From an uncultured Victivallales bacterium (GTDB lineage Bacteria > Verrucomicrobiota > Lentisphaeria > Oligosphaerales > JAFGRS01), in assembly GCA_903837355.1 (NCBI GenBank), contig CAILUI010000200.1:2311-66310 (forward strand): a stretch of DNA of 64,000 nt, written 5' to 3'. The translations under genes and the position numbers were made by a program. Below the pieces are notes generated by a model. The model had not been told where the DNA came from and searched no databases. It saw only the letters and a list, made by a program, of their open reading frames with translations. Below, in pieces: positions 6,591 to 32,210 of the stretch; position 1 is the first letter of the stretch, and each line of letters begins with the position of its first letter.

Positions 6591-7217
6591 ATGCAATCCC
6601 CGCCTACCGCCAGTGCCGCCGTACGTGGCCTGATCACGATCGCCGTGGCCCTCCTCTGTGCGGCCGGGATGCGCGCCGCCGAGGAGCCGGCCGCCCCGGC
6701 TGCCAGCGGGCCGTCCGCCAAGGCCCTGCTCGACGAGGCCCTCGCCGACTGGGATGATCCCGCGGCCAAGCAGGCCATCCTGCGCGAGATTCACGATGTC
6801 CTCCCCGCCCGTCTGACCGAACTGCAGGGGGTCGCCGAGCGCAACCATGACGCCGCCCTCGAGATGGCGGGACAGATGGTCGAGCAAGCCAACCGTCTGG
6901 TCGATCTCAAGAACGACGAGCCGCGCGAGTACGAGCGCGCGGTCCGTCTCTGCCGTCTCGAGGATGAATGCCTCGGCCTGGCCCAGAAGGCCCGCGCCGC
7001 CCAGGGCGCAGCACGCGAGCCCCTGGTGGCCAGCCTGAAGCAGAAGCTCAGCGAGGCCTTCGACGCCAAGCAGGATACCATGACTCGCCAGATCGCTGCC
7101 ATGGAGGCCGAACTCGACGAACTGCGCCGACGCGCCACCAAACGCAGCGAGAGCCGCGACGCGCTCATCGAACGTCGCGCCCTCGACCTGCTTGGCGACC
7201 GCGACGCGGAGTGGTAG
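6591..7217 (+). CDS. Hypothetical secreted helical/coiled-coil protein
   Basis: Signal-peptide-like N-terminus (…GMRA|AEE), then charged amphipathic helices. GGGAG RBS lies before ATG 6591. Confidence 0.7.
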   Translation: MQSPPTASAAVRGLITIAVALLCAAGMRAAEEPAAPAASGPSAKALLDEALADWDDPAAKQAILREIHDVLPARLTELQGVAERNHDAALEMAGQMVEQANRLVDLKNDEPREYERAVRLCRLEDECLGLAQKARAAQGAAREPLVASLKQKLSEAFDAKQDTMTRQIAAMEAELDELRRRATKRSESRDALIERRALDLLGDRDAEW

Positions 7218-7225
7218 GCCGCCGC

Positions 7226-9736
7226 CTAGATGAACAGCGTGGTGCTGCTGGCTCGGGCCATGGCTGCGAACTTGCCGACCCCGGCCAGTTCGTCCACCTC
7301 GTCCAGCAGTTCCTCGCGCTGCAGCCCCATCACGTCCATGGCCATGTCGCAGGCAACGAAGCGCACGCCCAGACTGCGGGCTTGGCGCATCAGTTCCGGT
7401 AGCGAGCTGACGTGCTTGCGGGCCATCACCTGCTTCATCATGTTCGTGCCCAGGCCGAGCATGTGCATCTTCGACAGGGCGAGCCGTCCGGCCCCGCGCG
7501 GCAGCATGAAGCCGAACATGGCGCTGATGACGTCCTTGATGGTATGCGGCGCGGGGTCCTTGCGCAGCACGCTCAGCCCCCAGAAGGTGAAGAACATGCT
7601 GACCTTGGTGCCCAGGCTGGCCATGCCGGTGGCGATGATGAAGGCGGCCATCACCTTGTCGAGGTCGTTGCTGAAGAGCACCACCGTGGCGCTGTCCGGA
7701 ACGCCCTGCACGGCGCCGGTGTTCAGGGCGCAGGCGGCACCCGGGGCGTTACCCTTACGCACCTGCGCCGCGAAGGACGTCGCCGCGCTGGACAGGGCCA
7801 CGATCTCATGGCCGCAACTGGCGCACCAGGCCTCCAGATCGTTGCGGAAGGCCAGCGCTCCCTGCACGGCCACCACCTCGCCGGCCTGCATGCTGTCGAT
7901 TTCCTGACGGACGCGTACGATCGGCCCCGGGCACTGCATCGCGGTCACGTCCAGGCGCCGTTCGGGTGCCGGCGGCGGCGTCGCGGCGACCGGGGCCACG
8001 GTCACGGGGAGGGCCTTCAGCGGAGCCGGGGCGGCCGGGGGCGCGGCCGGCGTGCTGGCGCTGCCGGGCGCGGCCTTCAGCGGGGCCGCCGGGGTCGCGG
8101 CGGGGCCGGGGTGGGTGTGCTTCCAGGTTACCCAGCCGCCGCTCAGGTTGGCGGCCTGGAAGCCATGCTGCTTGAGGATGCGTTCGGCGACGTAGCCGCG
8201 CAGGCCGACCTTGCAGTAGACCACGATCTGGCGGTCGCGCGGCAGTTCGCCGAGGCGCTGGCGCAACTGCCCCAGCGGGATCAGCCGGGCGTCCGGGATC
8301 AGGCCCAGGTCGGTCTCGGCCGGCTCGCGCACGTCCAGCAACAGCGCCCCCTTGGGCAGCGCGTCGGCATAGACCGCGTCGCTGTCGCCGCGCAGGAGAT
8401 TGGCGGCCACCATGCCGACGACGTTGATCGGCGACTTGGCTGAGCCGTAGGGTGGCGCATAGGCGAGTTCGAGTTCCGCCAAGTCGTAGACGGTCAGCCC
8501 GGCGCGCATCGCCGTGGCCAGCACATCGACCTGCTTCTCGACGTTCTTGCGGCCCACCACCTGGGCGCCCAGCAAGGTACCGTCATCACGGCACAGCAAT
8601 TTCATGTGCAGGACCTCCGCCCCGGGGTAGTAGGAAGCGTTGGACAGCGGGTGCACATAGACGCGGCGGAAGGGCGTCTTGGCCGCTGTCAAGGCCTCGG
8701 CTGTGCGGCCGACGCTGGCCGCGGTCAGGCCGAACACCTGCACCACGCTCGTCCCCAGCGTGCCCCGGTAGCGGCTGTCCCGTCCGCAGGCATTCTCGGC
8801 CGCGATGCGGCCTTGCCGGTTGGCCGGTCCGGCCAGGGGGATCAGCGTCGCCTCGCCGCTGACGACGTCGCGGACCGCGATGGCGTCGCCCACCGCCAGG
8901 ATGCTCGGATCGCTGCTGCGCAGGTGCTCGTCCACCGCAATGGCGCGTCCGGCGCTAAGGGTCAGCCCGGCGGCCGCCCCCAACTCGCTGTTGGGGCGCA
9001 CCCCCACGGCCATGATGACCACGTCGGTCTCCAGGCGCTCGCCGCCCTGCAGCGCGACGGTCAACGGCCCATTCGGCGCGACGCTCTCGATGGCCGTCGC
9101 CGCCTGGTTCAGGTGCAGCACGACGCCCTTGGCCGTCAGTTCCTGGTGCAGCGGCTGGGCCATCTCCGCGTCGAGGGTGCGCAGGACATGCGGCAGCACG
9201 TCGACCAGATGCACCTCCAGACCGCGCGCTCTGAGATTCTCCGCGACTTCGATGCCGATGAACCCGCCACCGATGACCGTGGCCCGCCGCACGCCCTGCC
9301 CCAGGCGCGCCAAAATGCGGTCCATGTCGCCGAGGGTCCACAGCGTGTGCACCCCCGGAGCGTCCGCACCGGGGATCGGTGGAATCACCGGCCGCGAGCC
9401 GGTCGCCAGAATCAGCGTGTCGTAACGCTCTTCATAGACCTCGCCGGTCTCCGCCTTCCTGACGACCACCGTCTTGCGGTCGCGGTGGATCGCGGTGACC
9501 TCCTGCCGGATACGCACGTCGACGCTGAAACGCGCCTTGAAGCGCTCCGGCGTCATGACCAGCAGGCTCTCGCGCTGCGGAATCACCCCGCTGAGGTGGT
9601 AGGGCAGGCCACAGTTGGCAAAGGAGATGAACTCGCCGCGCTCGAACATCACGATCTCGGCCTGCTCATCCAGCCGCCGGGCCCGTGCCGCCGCACTCGC
9701 CCCACCCGCTACACCGCCGACGATTACCAGCTTCAT
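7226..9736 (-). CDS. CoA-disulfide/persulfide reductase fused to rhodanese, TusA/SirA and DsrE2-like domains
   Basis: GGVAGG FAD motif, SFANCGLPY redox Cys, GGGFIG NAD motif, YAPPY, rhodanese YCKVGLRG, TusA CPGP, and DsrE2 FFTFWGL and ACDMAM. Confidence 0.9.
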   Translation of the reverse strand: MKLVIVGGVAGGASAAARARRLDEQAEIVMFERGEFISFANCGLPYHLSGVIPQRESLLVMTPERFKARFSVDVRIRQEVTAIHRDRKTVVVRKAETGEVYEERYDTLILATGSRPVIPPIPGADAPGVHTLWTLGDMDRILARLGQGVRRATVIGGGFIGIEVAENLRARGLEVHLVDVLPHVLRTLDAEMAQPLHQELTAKGVVLHLNQAATAIESVAPNGPLTVALQGGERLETDVVIMAVGVRPNSELGAAAGLTLSAGRAIAVDEHLRSSDPSILAVGDAIAVRDVVSGEATLIPLAGPANRQGRIAAENACGRDSRYRGTLGTSVVQVFGLTAASVGRTAEALTAAKTPFRRVYVHPLSNASYYPGAEVLHMKLLCRDDGTLLGAQVVGRKNVEKQVDVLATAMRAGLTVYDLAELELAYAPPYGSAKSPINVVGMVAANLLRGDSDAVYADALPKGALLLDVREPAETDLGLIPDARLIPLGQLRQRLGELPRDRQIVVYCKVGLRGYVAERILKQHGFQAANLSGGWVTWKHTHPGPAATPAAPLKAAPGSASTPAAPPAAPAPLKALPVTVAPVAATPPPAPERRLDVTAMQCPGPIVRVRQEIDSMQAGEVVAVQGALAFRNDLEAWCASCGHEIVALSSAATSFAAQVRKGNAPGAACALNTGAVQGVPDSATVVLFSNDLDKVMAAFIIATGMASLGTKVSMFFTFWGLSVLRKDPAPHTIKDVISAMFGFMLPRGAGRLALSKMHMLGLGTNMMKQVMARKHVSSLPELMRQARSLGVRFVACDMAMDVMGLQREELLDEVDELAGVGKFAAMARASSTTLFI

Positions 9737-9793
9737 CGCACCTTCCTCCTCGGTCTCAGCCGTACACTTCCGGCGCTTGTTACGCCACTCGTT

Positions 9794-10135
9794 TCAGCCG
9801 TTTTCACTCACGGTGCACTCCGCCTCGCTGGGCAGATGCAGCACGGTCAGCAGGTGGTTGCGCATGCACGAAAAGAGCTTCAGGAAGTCGGGATTGCGCA
9901 AGGCGCAGTACTTCACCGTGCCCTCCTTCCGCGTGCGGATCAGCCCATGCGCCTCCAGAATCCCCAACTGCTGCGACATCATGCTCTGGCTGCAGCCCAG
10001 CTTCGTGTAGAGTTGCGACACCGTCAACTCCCCCGAACGCAGGTGCTGCACTACCCCCAGGCGTAGCGGGTGCGCCAAGGCCCGTAAGACCCGCGCCGCG
10101 GGCTCCAACTGCGCGCTCGTCAACTCGTCCGCCAT
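9794..10135 (-). CDS. ArsR/SmtB family transcriptional regulator
   Basis: LRALAHPLRL...ELTVSQL...SQSMMSQQLGIL winged HTH with four Cys residues. Confidence 0.9.
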   Translation of the reverse strand: MADELTSAQLEPAARVLRALAHPLRLGVVQHLRSGELTVSQLYTKLGCSQSMMSQQLGILEAHGLIRTRKEGTVKYCALRNPDFLKLFSCMRNHLLTVLHLPSEAECTVSENG

Positions 10136-10162
10136 CGCTGTCGCCTCTCTGGGTCAGACCAT

Positions 10163-10207
10163 GAAACTACATAACATTATAATACAATGATATTCAGAAT
10201 ATGCAAT
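10163..10207 (-). promoter_or_regulatory. AT-rich promoter/operator of the ArsR-reductase operon
   Basis: AT-rich patch in GC-rich DNA directly upstream of arsR. Contains the palindrome ATATTC-A-GAATAT (10190-10202). Confidence 0.55.
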
Positions 10208-10490
10208 CGATGGACCGTAGAAATCTCTGCGCGAGTGTTTGGGGCGCGGGACTGCCTCAAGAAGGCTCGCGCGAGGCCGACTGGCGGTGCTTGTCTCAGT
10301 ACGCCGCGCGGCCCCCGGTCTGCCCAACGGCAAGACCCCGCGCGGTACCCCAGAGGCGCTCGGGACCCTGCTGGCCAGTCCTGCCGTCCGGCAGGACTGC
10401 GCGCCCTACCGGAGATGCCGCGCTCCGGATCTTGAAACCGCCCTGTCCGGGAGGCCGGGCGGCTGGCGCGGGTGGGCTCGGGGCGCTAAC

Positions 10491-10677
10491 CTAGTGTGTC
10501 GTCCGCCTATCCCGGTGGTGTGTGGCGGGCACCTCTGAACGTCCAACATCGAACACTGAACATCGAACATCGAAGTACCACCGCACGGGCGAGTGTCCTT
10601 CCTTCGACGTTGGACGTTGGACGTTCAGTGTTCGATGTTCATGGATAGCACAACGGATCTTGCGGGCGTTACACTAG
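10491..10677. mobile_element. MITE-like element A with inverted heptamer-repeat core
   Basis: Ends CTAGTGTGTCGTCCGC / GCGGGCGTTACACTAG are a 13/16 inverted match, with CTAG at both ends. Inside are five (G/C)AAC(A/G)TC-type 7-mers at about 10537-10574, inverted at about 10602-10641. Confidence 0.65.
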
Positions 10678-21692: not shown

Positions 21693-22490
21693 TCAGATCT
21701 GTGAGCCGGGCAGGGGGCGCAGGACCAGGTTGGTGATGCGCGAGACGGTGTCGGCGTACTTCGGGTCAGCTTTGAGCTTCTCCCAGTCGGGGTGCTTGAT
21801 GAAGGCCGCCCAGGCGGCCTCCTGTGCCGCGGCGCTCTCGAAGCTGATCATGTAGGTCAGGTTCGGCAGCAGGGTGCCGGCGATGGACTGGCCGAAGAAG
21901 ACCGGGGTCAGGCCGAGTTTCCGGAACAGCGCGATCTCGCCGCCTTCGTTGAACATCTCGATCTTGAGCCGGGCCCGCGCGTCGTTATGGCTTTCGTAGA
22001 TGCGCAACTGCAGCAGGCGGCCGGCGGCCAACGTCGGCACCTCGACCGTGGGGCAGGCGCTGAAGCCCAGCATGAGTTGCGTCTCGAAGCGCTCATAGAC
22101 CGGGTCGGCCAGCGGCGTGCCAAGCACGGCCTTGGCCAACGGCGCCAGCACCGTATCGGCCTCCAACCGTGCCGGCAGCGTCAGCGCCGCGGCCAGATCG
22201 GCATGCGGCAGGAGCACGTAGAGCTTCAGTTCGTCGGCCTCGAGGGTGAGCTTGGGGTTGTCGGCCTTGAACAGGCGGACGACGCCGACCGGCGTCACGC
22301 CAGCGCGGTTGAGCGCCGGCACGTAGGCCTGCGCCAGGAAGTCAGCGAAGGTCTTCAGCTTCGCCTCGGATGCGAAGCGATAGGTACGCAGTTCGATCAC
22401 CTGCTGCGCCGCCGGCTCGGCCGCCCGCACCACGCCGGTCAGCGCCACCGCTGCTGTCAATGAGGTCATCACCAGGCTCCTGCACTTCAT
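21693..22490 (-). CDS. Secreted NIPSNAP-family protein (two NIPSNAP domains)
   Basis: Signal peptide, ELRTY and LRIYESH repeats, PVFFG, PNLTYM and HPDW. Confidence 0.85.
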   Translation of the reverse strand: MKCRSLVMTSLTAAVALTGVVRAAEPAAQQVIELRTYRFASEAKLKTFADFLAQAYVPALNRAGVTPVGVVRLFKADNPKLTLEADELKLYVLLPHADLAAALTLPARLEADTVLAPLAKAVLGTPLADPVYERFETQLMLGFSACPTVEVPTLAAGRLLQLRIYESHNDARARLKIEMFNEGGEIALFRKLGLTPVFFGQSIAGTLLPNLTYMISFESAAAQEAAWAAFIKHPDWEKLKADPKYADTVSRITNLVLRPLPGSQI

Positions 22491-22615: not shown

Positions 22616-23341
22616 CTAGCGCCACCAGGCACCGCGCAGCATCGTGAGGACCACGAGGAAGATGACCCAACCGCTGGCCAGCGCACCAGGCACCCCCAGC
22701 GGCTCCCGGCCCAGGCGCAGAACCACCATCAGGGCGAGCAGGGCCAGCATCAGCACGGGAATCTGCCGGACCATCGTCCAGAGGCTGTTCCGCGCCTCGT
22801 AGGCAGCGATGACGCCAACCATCGGGAAGACGGTCACGAAGCCGCGCAGCCAGCCTTTGATCAGAATGAGCGTCGCGACGACACCCACGATGATGGGGAC
22901 TTTGACGTAGACCGGCAGCGGGCTGCGGTGGCCGGGTTCATCACGCGCGGGCAGTCGCCAATGCAAGCCGGCAGCGAGGGTGGCGCATCCGGCCACGGCC
23001 GCCCAGAAGGCTGTATCGTGGTCAGGGAGGTGCCTGGCAATCAGCGCGCCGCTGAGGATGTAGCCCAGGGCGGCGCCGATGATGGCGGCCACGATCGGCC
23101 AGGACTGGCGGGTGTGCAGGTACCAGACGGCCCAGGTGAAACCGAACAGCAGCCCCAGCCCCAGCACGTTGGTGGCGTCGACTGGCCGGCCGATGGCCAG
23201 GGTCGCGATACTGAAGGGAATGGGCAGCGTGATCAGCAGTGCTTTGTGCCGAGGCTGGTAGGCGTAGGCGATCGCGGTGGCCTGCACGGTCACCGCCGCC
23301 AGCAGAGCACCGTCCCAGACAGTGAGGTGTGGCCAAGGCAT
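22616..23341 (-). CDS. Hypothetical polytopic membrane protein
   Basis: About 8 hydrophobic segments, with conserved-looking EPGHRSPLP and FPMVGVIAAYE. Confidence 0.7.
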   Translation of the reverse strand: MPWPHLTVWDGALLAAVTVQATAIAYAYQPRHKALLITLPIPFSIATLAIGRPVDATNVLGLGLLFGFTWAVWYLHTRQSWPIVAAIIGAALGYILSGALIARHLPDHDTAFWAAVAGCATLAAGLHWRLPARDEPGHRSPLPVYVKVPIIVGVVATLILIKGWLRGFVTVFPMVGVIAAYEARNSLWTMVRQIPVLMLALLALMVVLRLGREPLGVPGALASGWVIFLVVLTMLRGAWWR

Positions 23342-23453
23342 AGTGCTGGAGCGGGCTCGCGTCCGGCCTGGTGCGATTCCGGCGCGCGAGCGACCACTGT
23401 AGCCCCGTAACGAACGCCTGACGAGCCTTGGGCCAAGCGTGGACGTGCCAGCG

Positions 23454-23481
23454 TCCTGGGACCGCCGACCGTCGGGTCGGC
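23454..23481. repeat. Dispersed REP-like palindrome (family K), copy 1
   Basis: TCCTGGGACCGCCGACCGTCGGGTCGGC is identical to 42473-42500. Confidence 0.75.
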
Positions 23482-23654
23482 AGACTCGCGGCAGGCCGCA
23501 CCCGCCCCGCGGCCGTACCATTCCGGGTGACCGCTGTCGGAAGGGGTTGACTCAGGACGTAGGCGGTCCATGTTTTCGGCGTAGCTGTCCGGCCCCGGGA
23601 GCGGTCCTCTTGGTGCGTTGTAGCAGCCCGGTGTGCGGCAGGGGGAGAACGACG

Positions 23655-24620
23655 ATGACGGACGGGATGAACCGACGCGGATTCCTGGCGGTGTCTGCCG
23701 CTGCCGGAGCCGGCTTGGCCTTGGCGCCGGCGATTGGCGCGGCTGAGTTCAAGACCACACTACGTCAGGCGTTGATCCGCGGCCTGCCGGATGACCCCAC
23801 CCTGGCCGCGCTGAAGGCCGCTGGCTTTGCGGGCATGGAATGCACGGCCTGGGACGCGCCGGCAGCGGCTGCCGAGGCGGCCCGGCAGCGTGCCGCCGCC
23901 CAAGGCCTGTCCATCCACTCGGTGCTGCGCGGCTGGTGCGAGTTCAACCACGCCGAGGCGGCCAAGGTCCAGGCCGATATTGATTCGATGAAGACGGCGT
24001 TGCAGACCGCGCAGCGCCTCGGGGCGGATGCCGTGCTGCTGGTGCCCTGCCGCGTCGGCGGGGCGCAGCCAGACCCGTGGGCCTTCCGCCTGGAGTTCGA
24101 CCCGTCGACCCTGGTGGTCTCGCGCGTCGCCGAGGGCGACAACGCCCCCTTCGCGGAGTACATCAAGGCGCAGAACCACGCCACCGAAACCAGCCGTAAG
24201 GCGGTCGAGGCGCTGATCCCGACCGCCGAGAAGTGCGGCGTGGCGATTGCCCTCGAGAACGTCTGGAATAACCTCTGGGTGACCCCGGAGTTCTTCGCCG
24301 CCTTCGTGAAGTCCTTCAAGAGCCCCTGGGTGAAGGCCTACCTCGATCTGGGCAATCACATCAAGTACGCGCCCACGCCGAAGTGGATCGACGCCCTCGG
24401 CGACCGCATCGCCAAGTGCCACGTCAAGGACTTCCGCCTGAAGCCCGACGGTAAGGGTGGCGACTTCGTGGACATCTGCGACGGCAGCAACGACTGGGTC
24501 GCGGTGCGCGCGGCGCTGGAGCGGGTGGGCTATAGTGGCTGGCTGACGATCGAAGGCAGCGACGGCTTGTCTCTGACCGAGCAGCATCGCCGTTTGGACC
24601 TGATCATCCGCGGCGCCTGA
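23655..24620 (+). CDS. Tat-exported sugar-phosphate isomerase/epimerase (AP endonuclease 2 TIM barrel)
   Basis: NRRGFL twin-arginine signal and metal ligands in ENVWNN, DLGN, HVKD and TIE. Confidence 0.88.
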   Translation: MTDGMNRRGFLAVSAAAGAGLALAPAIGAAEFKTTLRQALIRGLPDDPTLAALKAAGFAGMECTAWDAPAAAAEAARQRAAAQGLSIHSVLRGWCEFNHAEAAKVQADIDSMKTALQTAQRLGADAVLLVPCRVGGAQPDPWAFRLEFDPSTLVVSRVAEGDNAPFAEYIKAQNHATETSRKAVEALIPTAEKCGVAIALENVWNNLWVTPEFFAAFVKSFKSPWVKAYLDLGNHIKYAPTPKWIDALGDRIAKCHVKDFRLKPDGKGGDFVDICDGSNDWVAVRAALERVGYSGWLTIEGSDGLSLTEQHRRLDLIIRGA

Positions 24621-24643
24621 GACCGCTACCAGTGGAGACGAAC

Positions 24644-25963
24644 ATGGCACAGACGTTGATTGAGCGTCGGGACTTCCTCAAGCGCACCGCCGTGGCCGGC
24701 GCGGGCCTGCTGATCCTCAAGTCAGGCACGCTCAGCGGCCAGGCCGCGAGCAACAAGCTAAACATCGCCGTGATCGGGGTTGCCGGCCGTGGTGCGGGCG
24801 ACATCGACGGCGTCAAGCACGAGAACATCGTCGCCCTCTGCGACGTCGATGCGAACAATCTCGCCGCCGCCGCCAAACGCTTCCCTGAGGCCAAGACTTA
24901 CAGCGACTGGCGCCTCTGCCTGGAGCAGAAGGACATCGACGCGGTGGTCTGCGCGACCACCGACCACACGCACGCCTTCATCAACACCTGGGCGATGAAC
25001 CGTGGCAAGCACGTCTACTGCGAGAAGCCCCTGGCCAACGGCGTGCACGAAGCCCGCGTGGTGCGCGAGACCTACCTCAAGAATCAGGGTAAGCTGGCCA
25101 CCCAGATGGGTACCCAGATTCACGCCACGGACAACTACCGCCGCGTGGTCGAGTTGATCCGCGACGGCGTGATCGGCAAGGTCGACGACGTGCGCATCTG
25201 GTGCAGCCGCGAGCCCAAGGGCGGCACCTACCTGCCCGCCGCCGGCCAACCGCCGGCGCACCTGAACTGGGACCTTTGGCTCGGGCCCAGCCCCGAGCAT
25301 CCCTACAACCCGGAGTACTTCGGCGGCTGCCTGGCGTGGAACCTCTACTGGGACTTCGGCAGTGGCCAGATCGGCGACATGGGCAGCCACATGCTGGATC
25401 TGCCTTACTGGGCGCTCAACCTGCGCTTCCCCACCAGTTGCGAGGCGCAGGGGACGCCGCTGAGCACCGACACCTGCCCGCAGTGGCTCGAGGCCAAGTG
25501 GGAGCACCCGGCGACCGCAGAGCGTGGGCCGGTGACCGTTTACTGGTATGACGGCGGCAAGAAGCCCGGTATGCCCACCAAAGTCTTCAACCGCGACGAA
25601 CTGTTCAAGGGCGTCCTGTTCAAAGGTGACCAGGGCTGGCTGCTGGCCGACTACGACTTCCGCATCGTCATGCTGCGCGGTGATATGACCCACTACCAGC
25701 GGCCGGAAACCAAGGACATCATCCCGCCCTCGGTCGGCCACCATCAGGAATGGCTCAACGCTTGTCGCGACCCGAAGCTGCCCACCTTGTGCAACTTCGA
25801 CTACTCCGGCGCGCTCATCGAGCATAATCTGCTGGCGATGGTCGCCTACCGCACCGGCAAGCGGCTCGAGTGGGACGCTGCCAATCTCAAGGCGACGAAC
25901 TGCCCCGAAGCCGACGCCTTCGTCAAGAAGACGTATCGCCAGGGCTGGACGCTCAACGGTTGA
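24644..25963 (+). CDS. Tat-exported Gfo/Idh/MocA oxidoreductase
   Basis: ERRDFLK Tat signal, IGVAGRG, TTDHTH, YCEKP, WDLWLGP and GDMGSH. Confidence 0.92.
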   Translation: MAQTLIERRDFLKRTAVAGAGLLILKSGTLSGQAASNKLNIAVIGVAGRGAGDIDGVKHENIVALCDVDANNLAAAAKRFPEAKTYSDWRLCLEQKDIDAVVCATTDHTHAFINTWAMNRGKHVYCEKPLANGVHEARVVRETYLKNQGKLATQMGTQIHATDNYRRVVELIRDGVIGKVDDVRIWCSREPKGGTYLPAAGQPPAHLNWDLWLGPSPEHPYNPEYFGGCLAWNLYWDFGSGQIGDMGSHMLDLPYWALNLRFPTSCEAQGTPLSTDTCPQWLEAKWEHPATAERGPVTVYWYDGGKKPGMPTKVFNRDELFKGVLFKGDQGWLLADYDFRIVMLRGDMTHYQRPETKDIIPPSVGHHQEWLNACRDPKLPTLCNFDYSGALIEHNLLAMVAYRTGKRLEWDAANLKATNCPEADAFVKKTYRQGWTLNG

Positions 25964-26929
25964 TCAGTCCAACAGTTCGGCGCGGCCGTAGGTGCGCACC
26001 ACGGGCGGGCCGTCGGCGGCTTCCGCCTGGACCACCATGGCCCAGACGTCGGCATGGCGCCGGACAAAGGCGTCCGCCTCCGCCGGCGAGAAGACCATGA
26101 AGGCGGTTGACAGGGCGTCGGCCGCGGCCGCCGAGTCGCAGAGGGTCCAGGCGCCGAGGATGGCGGTGACCGGACGGCCGCGCCGGGGGTCGAGGATGTG
26201 ACGGCCCTTGACCGCCATGCCTGAGCCACTGAGGGCGGCGTTGTGCAGGCGCAGCCGCGAGAAGCCCAGCGCCTTGCCCCAGTCGCCTCCCGCGCCGACC
26301 ACCCAGCCCTTGCCCTCGGGTTCCGGTCCCGGCCCGAGGGCCAGCGCCGTGCTGGTGCCTGAATGCACCAGCACATTGTCCACCTTCCAGTCGTTCAGCG
26401 TTTCGCGTAACCCATCCAGGGCAAACCCCTTACCGACCGCGCCGAGGTCAATGACCACGCCGGTTGAGTCCGCGGCCAGGGTGACACTGAACTCCCGCGG
26501 GCCGCCGTTCCCCGGCGGGGTAGCATGCAGGCGCAGTTGTCGGATCCCCACACGGGCCAGCGCCGCACTGAGTAAGGCCGGAGACGGCGCCTCGAGTCCT
26601 TGCCGGCGCGCCTCAGCCCAGCAGGCCAGGAGCGGCCCGCAGCTCGCCTCGAAGGCGCCGGCGGTCTCCTGGGCGACGTAGGCCGCCAGACGCAGGCAGT
26701 TGTAGACCTCGAGAGAGACGCGGACGGTCTCACCGGGCTGGAGGCGGTTGATCTGTGAGACGTCACTGCCGGGATCGTGCCGGCTGAGCAGACGCTCGTA
26801 GCGGTCGACCTCCCGGAACAGTTCCGTGGCGACCTCACCGCCATAGCGAGCACTGCCGCCCGCCACGATGACCTCGAATCGGGTCGTCATGGCCTCATGA
26901 GCAAAGCGGTGAAGCGGCAAGTCTGCCAT
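25964..26929 (-). CDS. apbE: FAD:protein FMN transferase (ApbE family), no signal peptide
   Basis: Motifs AMTT, SDVSQIN, DLGAVGKGFALD, ALSGSG, HILDPRRG and ADALSTA. Confidence 0.85.
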   Translation of the reverse strand: MADLPLHRFAHEAMTTRFEVIVAGGSARYGGEVATELFREVDRYERLLSRHDPGSDVSQINRLQPGETVRVSLEVYNCLRLAAYVAQETAGAFEASCGPLLACWAEARRQGLEAPSPALLSAALARVGIRQLRLHATPPGNGGPREFSVTLAADSTGVVIDLGAVGKGFALDGLRETLNDWKVDNVLVHSGTSTALALGPGPEPEGKGWVVGAGGDWGKALGFSRLRLHNAALSGSGMAVKGRHILDPRRGRPVTAILGAWTLCDSAAAADALSTAFMVFSPAEADAFVRRHADVWAMVVQAEAADGPPVVRTYGRAELLD

Positions 26930-26942
26930 CGGAGGACCAGGC

Positions 26943-27476
26943 CTATCGCGGCGCCTGATGCAGGCGGGCTTCGGCGAGGGCCAGGCTCAGCGCCAGCGCC
27001 ACAATCGCCAGGGCGCACAGGCGGTGGATGGTAACCAGTACCTCCTGACCGTGCGTCCCGAACCAGGGCAGCATGGCGACGAGGGGCGTCACAATCGCCC
27101 CGATCACGGCAACCGCCAACAGCCAGAAACCGAGGCGGTGAGCCGGACAATAGGCCGGACACCCCGTGTCCCCGACCTCAAAGGCGAAGCGCGGAGCCCA
27201 GAAGAGCAGTCCCAGCGTGAACGCTGCCGCCAGCACGGCGCCGCAGCCGACATGCAGCAACAGCGGGTAGCCCGACAACGCCGAACCCGTAAGTCGGATC
27301 CCGAAGCCGCTCAACGCCAGGGCCAGGAAACTGAGTCCGGCACCCGCGGCGAGCAGCCGTTCCAGCCGTGGGAAACGGCGGGTGCTCGCAGCGCCGCGGC
27401 CCCGCCGCAGGCGCACACATGCGAGCACCATGACCACGGTACCGAAGAGACCGAGAGCCGAAAGTAGTTGGAGCAT
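26943..27476 (-). CDS. Small membrane protein, cytochrome-b-like (His in TM helices)
   Basis: About 5 hydrophobic segments with LLLHVG and TIHRL histidines. RFPRLER resembles the start of FdnI/HyaC-type cytochromes b. Confidence 0.5.
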   Translation of the reverse strand: MLQLLSALGLFGTVVMVLACVRLRRGRGAASTRRFPRLERLLAAGAGLSFLALALSGFGIRLTGSALSGYPLLLHVGCGAVLAAAFTLGLLFWAPRFAFEVGDTGCPAYCPAHRLGFWLLAVAVIGAIVTPLVAMLPWFGTHGQEVLVTIHRLCALAIVALALSLALAEARLHQAPR

Positions 27477-27487
27477 GGTGTTCTCCC

Positions 27488-29800
27488 TCATCCCTTGCTG
27501 CTGAAGAACCCGGCCGCACGCCGCACGCCGGGCAGGACGAAGGCAAGCACGATCAGCCCGGCGACTGCGACGGCCGCCCCCAGGGCTGCCTTGAACCACG
27601 GACGGACGTAGAAGCTCCAGGCAAACAGCCGGTTGAACGGGGCCTGCAGCCCATGCCAGTCGGACATCCGCGTCACGGCGCCGCGCGTGGTGAGCAGTGG
27701 CCCGGCCGCCGGTACGGATCCAAACAGCAGCGCTGCCGAGGGCGAGTGGCAGTCTGTGCAACCGCCGCTGCCCAGCGCCTGCGTGGCGGGCCGGACATCA
27801 TGCCCGACCGCCCATGAGCACGGCGCCGCGGCCGGGTCGTCCACTGCCTCCAGCGCCGTACCGCCCGCCGCTGCCAGCCGGAACAGTTTGCCCGAACTCA
27901 CATAGCCATAGGCGACTCCCGGCGCCTTCTCCGCCGCGGCCAGGACCTGCAGCACGCGGGCGACCTGGTCCTCGTTGAACGCTTCTTCGCGCCCTGTCGT
28001 CGCGGCGACGGCCGCGAAGACGAAGTCCGGGAGCAGCGGCGTGGTCGCCGCACTCTGCTGCCATACCCAGCCGGTCAGTGCCGGCGGCGTTTCCAGGGTC
28101 GTGGCCTCGATGGCGCCATTGGTCACGGCGTAACGCTTCGTACCGACGATCAGCACTGGCTGGCCGGGGGCCCCAAGCCACTGCGACAAGGACTGCAGCG
28201 TCGCCTGCAGGCGGGTCGCGACAGCAGACTCGAGGTCGACGGCAGGATCGAAATCCGGCAACAGCGGCAACAGCCCATCCGGACCCAGCCGCCCCCACCA
28301 GCACCCCGCCCGCGCCCCCGCCGGGGCCGGCTGCGTCTGCACACGCCCATCCGCGGTCGGCTCGTAGACCGCGTTATCCATGACCAGCACCGCCGGCGCC
28401 GGCGCCTCGACATCGCGGCGCAGCGCGCTGAGGATACCAGCCACCTGCTGGGCTGCATCCAGGATGCCTTTGCCGGCCAGCGTCACCGCCTCCGGCCGCA
28501 ACGGCGTGGTCTTGCCGCCTTCGGTCCGGGCCCAGAAGGCCGGCCAGGCCATCCGGTGCGGCGCGATCTTGCCGTCGAAGGTCTTCATGAACACCGGTTC
28601 GACGATCTGCGGCGCGCTGGTGAACCACTGCGCCCGACCGTGGACGCCGAGGCGGTTGGCACGGGCCGTGCGTACCCGCTGCGGCTCTTCCTGCGGCCGG
28701 TAGCTGGAGTGACAGACCGTGCAGGAGAGCTTCTCGAAATGGCTCGGCGGCAGACCGCGGTGCAGCGGCCGGGGCGCGCCGAGGCGACCGGCCGACGCCG
28801 TGCCGGCCGTGTCCGTGCCTAGGTGACAGCCGCGGCAGGAGAAGTCGCCCGCGCCGCGGGAGGTGCCTACTTGGGGTTCGCCCTCGTAGCCGCGGATGAC
28901 TTGGTGATCCTGGCCATTGCGGTGGCAATCGGCGCATTGCAGGCCGGCCCGGCTGTGAACGTCGCCGTCTACCTGCCAGCGCTCGCTGTTGACGGGTGTT
29001 ACCGAGTGACAGAACAGGCAGTTGCGGTCTGGCGGCCGGTAGCTGAGGTCGATGAGCGTGCGGTGCTTGGCGTCAAACTGGCCCTGATCGTAGCGGATGT
29101 AGGGCGGCACCGCATACTGATGGTCGTCGGGATTCGGGCCATCAATCTGCCGCCAGCTTTCCCGTACGCGCGAGGCCATGCCGCCGACGTCGCCGAAGCC
29201 GTCGGCAGCGGTCGCGGCCCAGCGGAAGTTCTCGCGTGCGATCTGTTTGGCCCACTCGCTGGGGTCCTGCCGAGGCGAGGCGCCGTGACAGGCCTGGCAG
29301 TGGACGTCCACCTTGCCCGAGACGTCCCAGCGGGCTTCGGGGTCGGCGAACTCATCGGCCGGCTCGCCCCAGCCACCGCCCGGGAAGTGCCGGCCCCAGA
29401 GCTTCGTGCACTGCCAGGGCGTGAGCCCGAGGTCGGCCGGCTTCCAAGTCTGTGGCCAGCCATGGCCCGACACCGGGATCTGCGTCCCGGTTGCCGAATC
29501 CACCCAGAACCACGGTTGGGCGGGACGGCCCAGTTGGCTGGCCGGGACATCCGGGCTGAAGTGGAAACCGCCGGCGATAGCGGCGTAGTCGTGGCAGGAG
29601 CCACAGGTCTGACGCGAGGAGTAGGGGGGCGCGCCCGGCAGCGCCGGCACGATGGCGTCGCCAGCCTCGTCGGTCAGCACCAGCCGGTGCACCGGCGTGG
29701 TGCGACTCCCGTCCCACACCTCGCCCCGGCCGGCCGGCTCCTGGGAGCGGGCCGTGGCGATCAGAAGCAGCAGTGTTGCAGCGGCTACGGGGATTTTCAA
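27488..29800 (-). CDS. Multiheme cytochrome c (7 CxxCH motifs), signal peptide and C-terminal membrane anchor
   Basis: CGSCH, CQACH, CLFCH, CADCH, CRGCH, CTVCH and CTDCH. TTG start at 29800 overlaps the upstream TGA. Hydrophobic N- and C-termini. Confidence 0.88.
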   Translation of the reverse strand: MKIPVAAATLLLLIATARSQEPAGRGEVWDGSRTTPVHRLVLTDEAGDAIVPALPGAPPYSSRQTCGSCHDYAAIAGGFHFSPDVPASQLGRPAQPWFWVDSATGTQIPVSGHGWPQTWKPADLGLTPWQCTKLWGRHFPGGGWGEPADEFADPEARWDVSGKVDVHCQACHGASPRQDPSEWAKQIARENFRWAATAADGFGDVGGMASRVRESWRQIDGPNPDDHQYAVPPYIRYDQGQFDAKHRTLIDLSYRPPDRNCLFCHSVTPVNSERWQVDGDVHSRAGLQCADCHRNGQDHQVIRGYEGEPQVGTSRGAGDFSCRGCHLGTDTAGTASAGRLGAPRPLHRGLPPSHFEKLSCTVCHSSYRPQEEPQRVRTARANRLGVHGRAQWFTSAPQIVEPVFMKTFDGKIAPHRMAWPAFWARTEGGKTTPLRPEAVTLAGKGILDAAQQVAGILSALRRDVEAPAPAVLVMDNAVYEPTADGRVQTQPAPAGARAGCWWGRLGPDGLLPLLPDFDPAVDLESAVATRLQATLQSLSQWLGAPGQPVLIVGTKRYAVTNGAIEATTLETPPALTGWVWQQSAATTPLLPDFVFAAVAATTGREEAFNEDQVARVLQVLAAAEKAPGVAYGYVSSGKLFRLAAAGGTALEAVDDPAAAPCSWAVGHDVRPATQALGSGGCTDCHSPSAALLFGSVPAAGPLLTTRGAVTRMSDWHGLQAPFNRLFAWSFYVRPWFKAALGAAVAVAGLIVLAFVLPGVRRAAGFFSSKG

Positions 29801-31188
29801 GCGAGGAACTCCCCTTCGTTGAAGTGGAGTTTCCGCGCCTGCTCGACCGCCTCGTTGACACGCAGGACCGCCACCGCGGTCTCGTAACCAACCTGGGCCG
29901 GGCAGTTCAGCGGGACGCCGAGGCGGATGGCATTGAAGAAGTTCTCGAGGTGCGGTTGGTGCGCCGGCTTGGCCAGTTCGACCGGCAGCGGCCAGTTCCC
30001 GGACTCCATGGTGACGCGCACGTCCACCGTGACATCGCGGGTGGCAGCGCGAACGATCGGCGCCTTCACCGGACTGAGCAGGCCCATCTTGACGTAGGGA
30101 TCCCAGTCGGGGGCGTGCGGCTCCCGCATCGCGGCGTTGCCGCGCGACGGGACCTCGGAGATCAGCAGCGAACCATTCTCGCCCATGAAGGTCTCGTAGA
30201 AGCCGCCGTGGGAGGTCGTGGTCAGGACTTGGTAGAAGGCGCGCGCCGTTCCCTCCGGCGTCTCGTAGTCGAAGATCGCCATGACGTTGTCGTACCATTC
30301 GTGGAGTTTGTAGAAGTCGATTCCGCCTGCCGCCGTTACCGCGCTTGGGTTACGTCCGAAGACCCAGGTGAAGATGTCGATCTGATGCGAGCCCAGATCG
30401 ACGATCGGACCGCCGCCGTACTTCTTGTACCAGCGCCAGTTACGGAACTGCGACATGGATGCGTAACCGTACTTCTCGAGGATGTCCGCCGGGACCGGGC
30501 TGCGCTCTGGCCAGCCGAGGTCTTCGCTCTTGGCGCGGTTCCACTGCCCGTACCCGTGCGTCACCCGACCAAGGAGTTTGACGTCGCGGATGAGCTTGTT
30601 CACCGCGTGGATATAGCGCGGATTACTGCGGCGCTGGTGCCCGATCTGCAGGAGCTTGCCGGTCTCCTTCGCGGTCTGCACCATGGTGCGGGCCTTTTCC
30701 AGGCTGTTGGACATCTCCTTCTCGCAGTAGACGTGCAGCCCGGCGCGCATGCAGGCATTGGCGTGCTCGGCATGCATCCAGTCCGGCGTCGCCACGATGA
30801 CGGCGTCGAGGTCCTTCTCCTTCTCCAGCAACTCGCGGTAATCCTCGTAGACGTTGACCGTATGGCCGTATTTCTTGAGGTAACGGCTGCCGTACTGCTG
30901 GCTGTAAGCCCAGATATCGCAGACGGCCTTAAAGCGGATGCCGGGGATACGCAGGGCGGCCTCGATCAGCACCCGGCCCTGAGCCCCGACGCCCATCACC
31001 GCCACGTTCAGGTCGTCGCCCTTCGCTTTCGGCGCGGTTGGCGGCGCCGCCGCGGCTGGGGCTTCTTGCGCCAGCGCGGTCTGCAACACGGAGGATGCGG
31101 CCAGGCCGGCTCCCACACCGGCCGAGGTGCGCAGGAAATCGCGGCGACTGGCGTCCGCCGCAGGCAGGGAAGTAGCGTTCTCGTCCAT
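29797..31188 (-). CDS. Tat-exported Gfo/Idh/MocA oxidoreductase
   Basis: SRRDFL Tat signal, MGVGAQG, ATPDWMH, YCEKEM, GHQRRS, NWRWY and DLGSHQID. Confidence 0.92.
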   Translation of the reverse strand: MDENATSLPAADASRRDFLRTSAGVGAGLAASSVLQTALAQEAPAAAAPPTAPKAKGDDLNVAVMGVGAQGRVLIEAALRIPGIRFKAVCDIWAYSQQYGSRYLKKYGHTVNVYEDYRELLEKEKDLDAVIVATPDWMHAEHANACMRAGLHVYCEKEMSNSLEKARTMVQTAKETGKLLQIGHQRRSNPRYIHAVNKLIRDVKLLGRVTHGYGQWNRAKSEDLGWPERSPVPADILEKYGYASMSQFRNWRWYKKYGGGPIVDLGSHQIDIFTWVFGRNPSAVTAAGGIDFYKLHEWYDNVMAIFDYETPEGTARAFYQVLTTTSHGGFYETFMGENGSLLISEVPSRGNAAMREPHAPDWDPYVKMGLLSPVKAPIVRAATRDVTVDVRVTMESGNWPLPVELAKPAHQPHLENFFNAIRLGVPLNCPAQVGYETAVAVLRVNEAVEQARKLHFNEGEFLA

Positions 31189-31315
31189 AAGCGATCCACC
31201 CTTTCGGTTAGGCGCGCGTCAGCATAGCGCCGGGTCGCTGTAATCGCAAGACGGCAAGGCGCGCTTTGGTAATGCCTCGCTAAAGTCCGCAGCAACCCGG
31301 CTTTGCGGGCACGCT

Positions 31316-31355
31316 CTGGAGGGGGCGAATCCTGCTGTCCAGCAGGACCCTCCAG
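31316..31355. repeat. Family H-related nested hairpin upstream of the cytochrome operon
   Basis: Outer stem CTGGAGGG...CCCTCCAG encloses TCCTGCT-GTCC-AGCAGGA. Confidence 0.55.
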
Positions 31356-31413
31356 GCCGGCCCCCGGCTGGCGCCAGACACACCTACAGGCGAACCGCGG
31401 CCCCTTGCTTTTC

Positions 31414-31467
31414 GTCATGGGTCATGGGTCATGGGTCATGGGTCATGGGTCATGGGTCATGGGTCAT
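31414..31467. repeat. Perfect heptamer tandem repeat (GTCATGG)7 + GTCAT
   Basis: Read directly from the sequence. Confidence 0.95.
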
Positions 31468-31481
31468 TCATACGACCACGA

Positions 31482-32210
31482 TTACGATAGCGATGTCGGG
31501 GTTCGACCGCTCTCCCGTTCCAGACGGCGGAGGGCGGCCACGACCTCCTCGATGGGCAGGCCGATGACGTTGCTGCGCAGACCAGCGATCTCGGCAACCA
31601 GCATCTCGCCGTGCTCCTGAATGCCGTAGGCACCGGCTTTATCGAGCGGGTTGGCGCAGGTGCAGTAGGCCTGGATGGTCTCCGCAGGCAGGGCGGCGAA
31701 ACGAACGCGCGTGCGGCAGACCCATGCCTGGCGCTGGGCGGGTTCGCGGCACACCAGGGCGACGCCGGTGAGGACCTCGTGCCAGCGCCCCGACAGCGCG
31801 GCGAGCATGCGCTGGGCGTGGGCGAGGTCGGCGGGCTTGCCGAAGATCACCCCGTCGAGCACGACGACGGTATCCGCACCGAGCACGAGCGCCTGCGGGT
31901 GTCGCCCGGCCACGGCATCGGCCTTGGCCAGGGCCAGGCGCCGGACGTGGGCCGCGGCGGTCTCCCCGGGCAGCGCGGTTTCATCGACGTCGGCAGCATC
32001 GACACGGATGGCAATCCCCGCCTCCTGCAGCAGTTGCCGTCGCCGTGGCGAGGCACTAGCCAGGACGAGGGGGCCAGGCCTCGAACCCTCCAGCGGCGGG
32101 CGGACGGGTTCGGGAGACCGCGTGACCGCGGAACGACGGACGGAGCCCCCGCCGCCCGGCCGGTTCTGAGTCTGTCGTTCCGCCTGCAGGCGGTCGAAGC
32201 GGGGCGACAT
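31482..32210 (-). CDS. maf: Maf family nucleoside triphosphate pyrophosphatase (start uncertain)
   Basis: Motifs LVLASASPRRRQLL, GADTVV, GKP, LSGRWHEV and DKAGAYGIQ. Confidence 0.88.
   Translation of the reverse strand: MSPRFDRLQAERQTQNRPGGGGSVRRSAVTRSPEPVRPPLEGSRPGPLVLASASPRRRQLLQEAGIAIRVDAADVDETALPGETAAAHVRRLALAKADAVAGRHPQALVLGADTVVVLDGVIFGKPADLAHAQRMLAALSGRWHEVLTGVALVCREPAQRQAWVCRTRVRFAALPAETIQAYCTCANPLDKAGAYGIQEHGEMLVAEIAGLRSNVIGLPIEEVVAALRRLERESGRTPTSLS

Follow-up and report, generated by a model that had tools for sequence, protein, structure and literature searches.

How can a periplasmic enzyme with a buried nicotinamide adenine dinucleotide (phosphate) (NAD(P)) cofactor dispose of the electrons taken from its substrate? 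The question is raised by a four-gene operon at positions 25964-31188 (minus strand) of a 64,000-nucleotide stretch of DNA from an uncultured Victivallales bacterium (contig CAILUI010000200.1), the whole of which is referred to here as the window. Bacteria of the PVC group, Acidobacteriota and other environmental bacteria export many enzymes of the Gfo/Idh/MocA family, and to our knowledge it has so far been a puzzle how such an enzyme, once in the periplasm, sheds its electrons without a second sugar substrate. The operon offers a testable answer, which is a private haem wire to the membrane combined with a dedicated flavin-attaching enzyme, ApbE. On balance, and by analogy with formate dehydrogenase-N (FdnGHI), it is probably a periplasmic dehydrogenase:quinone oxidoreductase in which a flavin serves as the adaptor between two-electron and one-electron transfer. 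If this is true, a respiratory route would be added for the oxidation of sugars or polyols outside the cytoplasm, together with a new type of ApbE client and perhaps a new route of ApbE export.

The first gene (29797-31188, minus strand like the other three) encodes Gfo1, a Gfo/Idh/MocA NAD(P)-type dehydrogenase of 463 residues with a twin-arginine signal, which is the proposed catalytic subunit. It is followed by the genes for a heptahaem cytochrome c (27488-29800; 770 residues, with a signal peptide and a C-terminal membrane helix), for a cytochrome b-like membrane subunit (26943-27476; 177 residues, with five hydrophobic helices, a degenerate FdnI/PF01292 relative) and for ApbE, a FAD:protein FMN transferase (FAD, flavin adenine dinucleotide; FMN, flavin mononucleotide) without signal peptide or lipobox (25964-26929; 321 residues). 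The TTG start of the cytochrome c gene (29800-29798) overlaps the TGA stop of the Gfo1 gene (29799-29797) to give TTGA, 11 nucleotides (27477-27487) separate the stop of the cytochrome c gene from the cytochrome b gene, which is preceded by GGGAG, and 13 nucleotides (26930-26942) lie between the cytochrome b stop and ApbE. Judged from the sequence, this overlap and these gaps are consistent with translational coupling of the four genes. A first-pass annotation had described four co-oriented minus-strand genes with the same overlap and gaps, and the open reading frame table, the translation and the raw sequence all agree with it. It had also ascribed to their products a twin-arginine translocation (Tat) signal, seven CxxCH motifs, a signal peptide and an anchor on the cytochrome, a His-bearing membrane protein and a signal-less ApbE, and every one of these details was confirmed.

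The four-gene arrangement is more than chance and forms a conserved unit, because the gene order recurs across 87 non-redundant loci. The locus set comprised 80 metagenome loci (the best of 573 confirmed stretches), the loci L001 and L006 and 14 genome regions, 96 in all (L002-L005, which repeat the window, L001 or L006, were omitted); these fell into 87 clusters at 90% cytochrome identity, and one representative was counted per cluster. In 76 of the 80 loci with at least 300 nucleotides of upstream sequence, the gene immediately preceding that of cytochrome c on the same strand encodes a Gfo1 orthologue (at least 40% identity); the remaining four are L133, L136, L137 and L138. Downstream, on the same strand, ApbE occurs in 58 of the 67 loci with at least 1.8 kb in that direction (44 within 1.3 kb, 14 further away, 9 not found), and cytochrome b was detectable by tblastn within 500 nucleotides of the cytochrome c gene in 50 of 74 loci. 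The tally before removal of duplicates was 73/73 for Gfo1, 38 + 12 of 58 for ApbE and 44/67 for cytochrome b. Conservation of the gene order in relatives had been set as a test beforehand, and the non-redundant counts for Gfo1 and ApbE bear it out. The order Gfo1, cytochrome c, (cytochrome b), ApbE and a discoidin gene is seen in 10 of the 14 genome regions, which belong to the same phylum.

Close relatives mostly do not possess the cytochrome, which was present in 3 of the 61 genomes of the order sample (the window's own included) and in 22 of the 401 genomes, or 12 of the 185 genera, of the phylum sample. A scan of genome contigs with the single cytochrome protein gave one locus, of the same genus. 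The cytochrome family itself is large: 1255 proteins were found at E ≤ 1e-5 among 8000 candidates scored, and the representatives of 50%-identity clusters numbered 480 at E ≤ 1e-30, 725 at ≤ 1e-10 and 1072 at ≤ 0.001. Its members are annotated by their sources as hypothetical or as 'cytochrome c3 family', and the organisms named include Verrucomicrobia, Kiritimatiellae, Aminicenantes and one gammaproteobacterial metagenome-assembled genome.

Pfam scans and tblastn revealed that the usual operon consists of six genes, a form overlooked in the first-pass annotation. The two extra genes encode an F5/8 type C (discoidin) protein and a GT-C glycosyltransferase; where at least 5 kb of downstream sequence was available (54 representatives), ApbE was found in 48, the discoidin gene in 41 and the GT-C gene in 30. 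The discoidin protein of the operons is secreted and often a lipoprotein. In 56 related loci these proteins share an N-terminal LPKPxFxGTPxN before the discoidin domain, with the Gly-Thr invariant, and the Thr of this motif is a candidate modification site for the neighbouring GT-C or ApbE. The GT-C gene product is a membrane protein of the PMT_2/PMT family (TIGR03663 by one source's naming) with 11 hydrophobic segments, the loops of which obey the positive-inside rule. Its structural model (predicted local distance difference test score, pLDDT, 91.1; predicted template modelling score, pTM, 0.91) has 11 membrane helices and, after them, an alpha/beta domain; 37 structures match it at E ≤ 0.001, AglB, PglB, ALG12 and Pmt4 among the matches, and ArnT (5f15) does so over the full length (TM-score 0.64/0.64). 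The C-terminal domain of enzymes of this type presumably faces outward. In the window's genome the discoidin/GT-C pair lies on contig C172 (L144, 6860-9277) and not in the operon, and a second discoidin gene lies on contig C109 (L145, 6789-7388), two open reading frames from another Gfo/Idh/MocA gene. In genome G014 the set is split, with Gfo1 and cytochrome c on one contig and cytochrome b, discoidin, GT-C and ApbE on another.

Gfo1 is matched by PF01408 (E 9.7e-20, 71.9 bits, cut-off 24), PF22725 (E 2.5e-13, 50.6 bits) and PF02894 (E 2.3e-11, 44.4 bits). It carries the NAD(P)-binding Rossmann GxGxxG of the family, with G66, G68 and G71 invariant in 51 orthologues, and the catalytic residues of the Gfo/Idh/MocA C-terminal part, E156 and K157 (read as EKE), D264 and H268, are invariant in the same orthologues; we take the EKP-type Lys and the Asp/His pair to be the residues that act in catalysis. 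Its motif (SRRDFLRTSAGVGAGLAA, SRRDFL) identifies it as a Tat substrate. R15 and R16 are invariant in all 51 aligned orthologues and F18 is conserved in at least 90%, the Pfam TAT_signal model gives 20 bits, just below its cut-off of 22.7, and the hydrophobic-segment scan found no segment in Gfo1. The best sequence relatives in the PDB are DgpA (7xr9, E 5e-19), anhydrofructose reductase, aldose-aldose oxidoreductase and glucose-fructose oxidoreductase (GFOR, 1h6a). The nearest NCBIfam model is that of the BT_2158 glycoside 3-dehydrogenases (NF058561), which covers the N-terminal half only (residues 14-272) and gives 92.7 bits against a cut-off of 750, so that Gfo1 falls outside this family. 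GFOR of Zymomonas, aldose-aldose oxidoreductase of Caulobacter and the BT2158-type glycoside 3-dehydrogenases of Bacteroides share their fold and catalytic residues with Gfo1, and the PDB matches 1h6a, 5a02, 8tdf, 8tdh and 8tdi tie it to these periplasmic enzymes. GFOR is exported by Tat as a folded, nucleotide-loaded enzyme, a feature that it has in common with Gfo1. Periplasmic Gfo/Idh/MocA enzymes of the GFOR type recycle their bound nucleotide with a second sugar substrate, and we know of none with a dedicated cytochrome partner. A search for longer, fused forms of Gfo1 returned none at E ≤ 1e-60, which is weak evidence according to the search tool, and the 1108-residue protein P0009 contains no Gfo domain. 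In three loci (L007, L018 and L019) two tandem Gfo1 paralogues, 43-68% identical to the window's Gfo1, stand ahead of the cytochrome c gene.

The cytochrome c contains seven CxxCH motifs, at residues 66, 168, 261, 289, 322, 360 and 681, and no CxxCK, with a hydrophobic signal at its N-terminus and one hydrophobic helix (738-756) at its C-terminus. In 110 relatives all seven CxxCH are invariant or nearly so, and the same holds for eight further His residues (H38, H80, H138, H282, H299, H347, H354 and H667), which would be enough for bis-His ligation of all seven haems. Pfam assigns it to multihaem cytochromes c by short models only (PF14522, 33.8 bits, cut-off 24.8). In its AlphaFold2 model (pLDDT 83.2, pTM 0.84) the middle part (about residues 440-640) forms a beta-rich domain free of haem, and a long helix lies at the terminus; one class of the family consists of shorter proteins that have no such domain. 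A homology of this domain to the discoidin protein was considered and rejected, as BLASTP gave no match at E ≤ 10. Foldseek found no PDB match for the model at E ≤ 0.001. The exhaustive VIA-align comparison aligned it with 1sp3_A, the octahaem tetrathionate reductase of Shewanella oneidensis, over 311 residues (model range 33-730) with Z 8.8 and a root-mean-square deviation of 4.9 Å, and the next rows reached Z ≤ 5.8 and matched the terminal helix only. The likeness to this enzyme extends over 311 of 436 residues at 20% identity, whereas the operon cytochrome differs from it in having seven haems instead of eight, an additional haem-free, beta-rich insertion of about 200 residues and a membrane anchor. 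By sequence it does not belong to the octahaem tetrathionate reductases (TIGR04315, 17 bits against a cut-off of 375, E 0.0023; seven motifs), and its profile gave only a marginal match among PDB sequences, to NrfA (E 0.0015).

The membrane subunit had been called cytochrome b-like in the first-pass annotation, and it is a true cytochrome b relative. Compared directly with PF01292, it scores 16.5 bits (E 0.0076), below the cut-off of 30.1. The versions in sister operons (L014, L024, L082, G014 and others) are longer and score above the PF01292 cut-off (E to 5.4e-19); a weak match to the FdnH anchor family PF09163 is seen in helix 1 of these proteins. Profile-profile comparison (hhalign) of the window-type proteins with these PF01292-passing operon homologues gave a probability of 99.8% (E 6.7e-30), and therefore the window protein is assigned by sequence to PF01292, as a cytochrome b of the FdnI/HydC kind. 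In 29 window-type sequences only G57, G69, H75, W118, M135, Q144, H151 and L156 are invariant. Of the four haem-ligand His of FdnI two are retained (H75 and H151), and the RxxH His and the His at position +14, which L014, L024 and L082 possess, are absent. We take H75 and H151 to correspond to the FdnI ligands of the periplasmic-side haem, and the lost pair to those of the cytoplasmic-side haem beside the quinone site. A natural fusion of cytochrome c and cytochrome b (947 residues) is encoded at positions 6918-9761 of locus L078, in which the anchor helix of cytochrome c replaces helix 1; the topology is settled by this fusion, which also speaks for joint action of the two cytochromes.

ApbE is recognised by PF02424 (E 8.5e-47, 160.3 bits, cut-off 25.6). 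It aligns to ApbE of S. enterica (3pnd, E 2.2e-17), retaining DLGAVGKGFALD, HILDPRRGRP and ADALSTA, and comparison with solved ApbE/Ftp proteins shows that the blocks DLGxxGKGxALD, HxxDPxxGxP and ADALST are kept. Among 46 ApbE sequences D161, G163, K167, G168, D271 and T275 are invariant and H244 is conserved in at least 90%; these motifs presumably have FAD-binding and Mg/catalytic roles. A signal peptide or a lipobox is usual, not universal, in ApbE proteins. The operon ApbE has neither, nor any hydrophobic segment, and no signal peptide can be added to it because a stop codon lies directly before its ATG. The orthologues examined start 8-15 residues ahead of HRFxHxAM(G/T)T and likewise have no hydrophobic N-terminus. 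The genome encodes a second ApbE on contig C54, which carries an N-terminal membrane anchor and is 27% identical to the operon copy, and its only two FMN_bind proteins are encoded on other contigs. Therefore, the operon copy looks dedicated.

A client of this ApbE was sought by motif and by conservation. The motif [S/T]GA[S/T] is named as the ApbE target in passages of two sources (bioRxiv 10.1101/2021.01.07.425746; PMC12052999). Pfam domains of the FMN_bind, NqrB/RnfD, DUF2271 and DUF3570 families were not found in the operon proteins. The Gfo1 orthologues contain conserved Ser/Thr residues, none of them in a context resembling [S/T]GA[S/T]. Cytochrome b was rejected as a client, with no invariant Ser/Thr in 29 sequences, and so was the discoidin protein, since [ST]G[AS][ST] is absent from the 8 discoidin proteins searched; the invariant G-T-P in its LPKPxFxGTP was noted. 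The location of ApbE is touched upon by its fusions. A search for longer ApbE relatives gave four of them (P0122 and P0123, both GT-C-ApbE, P0124 and the more distant Nramp-ApbE fusion P0125), and a third GT-C-ApbE fusion is encoded at positions 4025-6586 of L015; the GT-C-ApbE proteins of L015, P0122 and P0123 are 853, 866 and 979 residues long. In these ApbE follows helix 11 with no intervening hydrophobic segment, and according to the GT-C model it should be periplasmic. In P0124 (768 residues), where an N-terminal ApbE is followed by one hydrophobic segment and then by ThuA-DUF1080, ApbE would stay cytoplasmic. In one locus without ApbE (L059) a gene with a flavodoxin domain (10012-10521; PF12724, E 7.7e-28) follows that of cytochrome b and may be an alternative flavin supply.

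The complex of ApbE and Gfo1 was predicted from mature Gfo1 (residues 56-463, alignment of 51 rows) and ApbE (46 rows). The score was 0.84 in the best run and 0.84 as the median of three, and the best of three controls gave 0.00. For comparison, 58 out of 80 solved complexes and 2 out of 110 mismatched pairs attain the mark used, counts that are only rough here, as own alignments were used. The runs share at least 94% of their contacts, with a partner pLDDT of at least 86. The interface is formed on the Gfo1 side by L224-G225-W226-P227, K106-Y107-G108, L79-R85 and E404-P408, and on the ApbE side by Y29-L73, P139-E146 and D180-W181-K182. Within these clades LGWP of Gfo1 is conserved in 43-45 of 51 sequences and W181 of ApbE in 45 of 46, and K407 and P408 of Gfo1, also at the interface, are likewise clade-conserved. 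The residues listed for the interface include nothing from the ApbE catalytic blocks, and the modelled contact therefore looks like stable docking rather than catalysis. We know of no solved complex of ApbE with a Gfo protein, and therefore a score owed to structures memorised by the predictor is unlikely.

In the proposed mechanism Gfo1 would fold around NAD(P) in the cytoplasm and then be exported by Tat, and in the periplasm it would oxidise its putative substrate, a sugar or a polyol. Electrons would pass from Gfo1 along the heptahaem chain of the anchored cytochrome c, then to haem b of the FdnI-type subunit and from there to the quinone pool as the presumed acceptor. Since the donor delivers a hydride and the haem acceptors take single electrons, a flavin would be needed between NAD(P)H and the haems, and the signal-less ApbE of the operon may supply it as covalent FMN. 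ApbE would dock on Gfo1, and would either modify it before export or cross by Tat and act in the periplasm. FdnGHI has a three-subunit architecture, and the operon resembles it in three parts: the catalytic subunit is loaded with its cofactor and exported by Tat, electron transfer falls to a subunit anchored by a single C-terminal membrane helix, and the cytochrome b is of the PF01292 type. However, a Rossmann-fold NAD(P) enzyme takes the place of the molybdoenzyme as catalytic subunit, the wire consists of seven c-type haems instead of four iron-sulphur clusters, the window's cytochrome b retains two of the four haem-ligand His, and ApbE is part of the set. Passages of a survey of flavinylation name NqrC/B, RnfG/D, NosR, PplA, DUF2271 and DUF3570 as ApbE-dependent extracytosolic systems (Meheust et al., bioRxiv 10.1101/2021.01.07.425746). 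As described there, systems of the NqrC/RnfG/NosR/PplA type are similar to the operon in that an ApbE gene lies beside membrane and extracytosolic redox proteins and in that covalent FMN is placed, in the operon presumably, outside the cytoplasm. They differ from it in that the operon lacks FMN_bind, DUF2271 and DUF3570 domains and the [S/T]GA[S/T] motif, and its ApbE is signal-less.

Several observations weigh against this reading. The flavinylation motif [ST]G[AS][ST] is absent from Gfo1, cytochrome c, cytochrome b and ApbE alike, and GGMAS of cytochrome c (residues 206-210) was rejected as a flavin site, as it is GGMAA in L010 and GGMAL in L013, both of which have ApbE. The binding of ApbE to Gfo1 is supported by a controlled prediction, the score of which expresses the model's own confidence rather than a measurement, and none of the listed interface residues comes from the catalytic motifs of ApbE. 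Since the nearest structural match of the cytochrome c model is an octahaem enzyme with catalytic function, this protein may be more than a conductor of electrons, and the quinone step is not assured, as the ligands of the cytoplasmic-side haem are lost from the window's cytochrome b. In two of the 14 genomes (G128 and G247) cytochrome c, cytochrome b and ApbE occur without Gfo1 within 8 kb upstream, where ExbBD and a lyase are found. The traces of expression have their limits as well. The window stretch was found in 20 listed runs from 8 studies of lakes or fresh water, 4 of them recorded as metatranscriptomes, and the operon is covered by contigs of these four libraries, which stem from two studies. 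The junction of Gfo1 and cytochrome c is bridged by record 8 of X11 (28492-31205) and record 15 of X15 (28770-30114), and record 19 of X16 (26915-27544, no differences) bridges the end of cytochrome c, cytochrome b and the start of ApbE. These contigs are supportive only, as RNA libraries can hold DNA and bridging proves no single transcript.

Two readings differ in the side of the membrane on which ApbE acts and in its target. ApbE may stay in the cytoplasm and attach FMN to folded Gfo1 before Tat export, so that the exported enzyme would hold both NAD(P) and FMN; this is a tentative possibility. The first-pass annotation had likewise proposed flavinylation of a partner by a cytoplasmic ApbE, followed by export through Tat. 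The partnership itself gained from the predicted binding to Gfo1 (0.84 against 0.00), whereas the modification step meets with the missing motif, for which no conserved Ser/Thr of similar context was found in Gfo1 orthologues, and with an interface that lies off the ApbE catalytic motifs. As to location, neither the window's ApbE nor any of the orthologues examined carries a signal, a cytosolic ApbE is on record for Klebsiella pneumoniae in passages of one source (PMC12052999), and the layout of P0124 would leave ApbE cytoplasmic; on the other hand, the GT-C-ApbE fusions of L015, P0122 and P0123 predict a periplasmic position for it. Alone among the partners, Gfo1 is folded both in the cytoplasm and in the periplasm, and it could be served by a free cytoplasmic ApbE as well as by a GT-C-fused, periplasmic one; the 2 of 14 genomes that keep cytochrome c, cytochrome b and ApbE without a neighbouring Gfo1 speak against Gfo1 as the sole client. 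Alternatively, FAD-loaded ApbE may bind Gfo1, cross the membrane on its Tat signal and flavinylate Gfo1, cytochrome c or the discoidin protein outside, which we regard as no less doubtful. Tat co-export of signal-less partners is known, and NosX is a Tat-exported relative of ApbE. Such hitch-hiking would reconcile the missing signal of ApbE with the fusions that place it in the periplasm, and it suits an interface that forms a docking surface of clade-specific conserved residues away from the catalytic motifs. Against it, P0124 points to a cytoplasmic ApbE, G128 and G247 have no neighbouring Gfo1 to carry it, and the client motif was found neither in the four window proteins nor in the 8 discoidin proteins. 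Flavinylation before export and hitch-hiking on Tat fit the evidence about equally.

The flow of electrons may also be reversed, with cytochrome b oxidising quinol and feeding cytochrome c, which would be either itself a terminal reductase akin to the octahaem tetrathionate and nitrite reductases or the donor to Gfo1 as a periplasmic reductase of keto-sugars. This reversal is in line with the sole outstanding structural match of cytochrome c, 1sp3_A (Z 8.8, the next ≤ 5.8), with the weak sequence matches to NrfA (E 0.0015) and TIGR04315 (E 0.0023) and with a cytochrome b whose single, periplasmic-side haem suits a simple quinol dehydrogenase. It is nevertheless improbable: with CxxCH at all haems and eight conserved His there is no obvious open catalytic haem, TIGR04315 gives 17 bits against a cut-off of 375, and a stand-alone reductase leaves the near-obligate pairing with the dehydrogenase (76/80) unexplained. 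Less probable still is that ApbE serves FMN_bind clients of the Rnf/Nqr type elsewhere in the genome and that its position in the operon is unrelated to the dehydrogenase. Two FMN_bind proteins do exist on other contigs, and the motif was not found in the operon proteins; however, a canonical membrane-anchored ApbE is already encoded on C54, the ApbE clade stays with the cytochrome operon in 58 of 67 loci, and ApbE is predicted to bind Gfo1.

Returning to the FdnGHI-like oxidoreductase, its three-subunit plan for a periplasmic respiratory dehydrogenase is known, and what is unprecedented within it is the catalytic subunit, the wire and the accessory enzyme. The first-pass annotation knew of no characterised system with this composition, and literature searches, from which subscription journals were mostly excluded, found none. 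Neither sugar nor Gfo systems are mentioned in the matching passages of the 2024 sequel to the bioRxiv flavinylation survey. The most far-reaching version, in which ApbE is a Tat hitch-hiker with an FMN site other than [S/T]GA[S/T], would give a chain of NAD, flavin, seven haems and haem b, and with it a new class of respiratory periplasmic dehydrogenases in several phyla; as a whole, this version is rather unlikely.

Upstream of Gfo1 lies an intergenic region of 293 nucleotides (31189-31481, read on the minus strand), which contains a perfect 7-nucleotide tandem repeat (31414-31467; unit GTCATGG on the plus strand, 7.7 copies, 100% matches by Tandem Repeats Finder). A change in its copy number could change expression. 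No consensus sigma-70 promoter and no terminator was found in 25500-31800. In two studies, contigs from RNA libraries stop at 31203-31215, a short way ahead of the Gfo1 ATG, which is a weak hint of a transcript start.

On the other side, two Tat-signal genes (23439-25963, plus strand) run convergent to the operon. The first encodes a xylose-isomerase-like TIM-barrel protein (PF01261, E 5.4e-34), in which the Tat motif lies at residues 77-96 and suggests a later true start. The second encodes Gfo2, a BT_2158-like Gfo/Idh/MocA protein (NF058561, 329.5 bits, cut-off 750). The stop of this gene, at 25963, is immediately adjacent to that of ApbE at 25964. The two convergent neighbours were rejected as conserved parts of the system, as, among the 50 loci that span at least 12 kb, a Gfo2-like gene occurs in 5 and the gene for the Tat TIM-barrel protein in none. 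Beyond them, on the minus strand, a multi-helix membrane protein without a Pfam match is encoded at 22616-23338, and a secreted NIPSNAP-domain protein (PF07978, E 7.5e-13) at 21693-22490.

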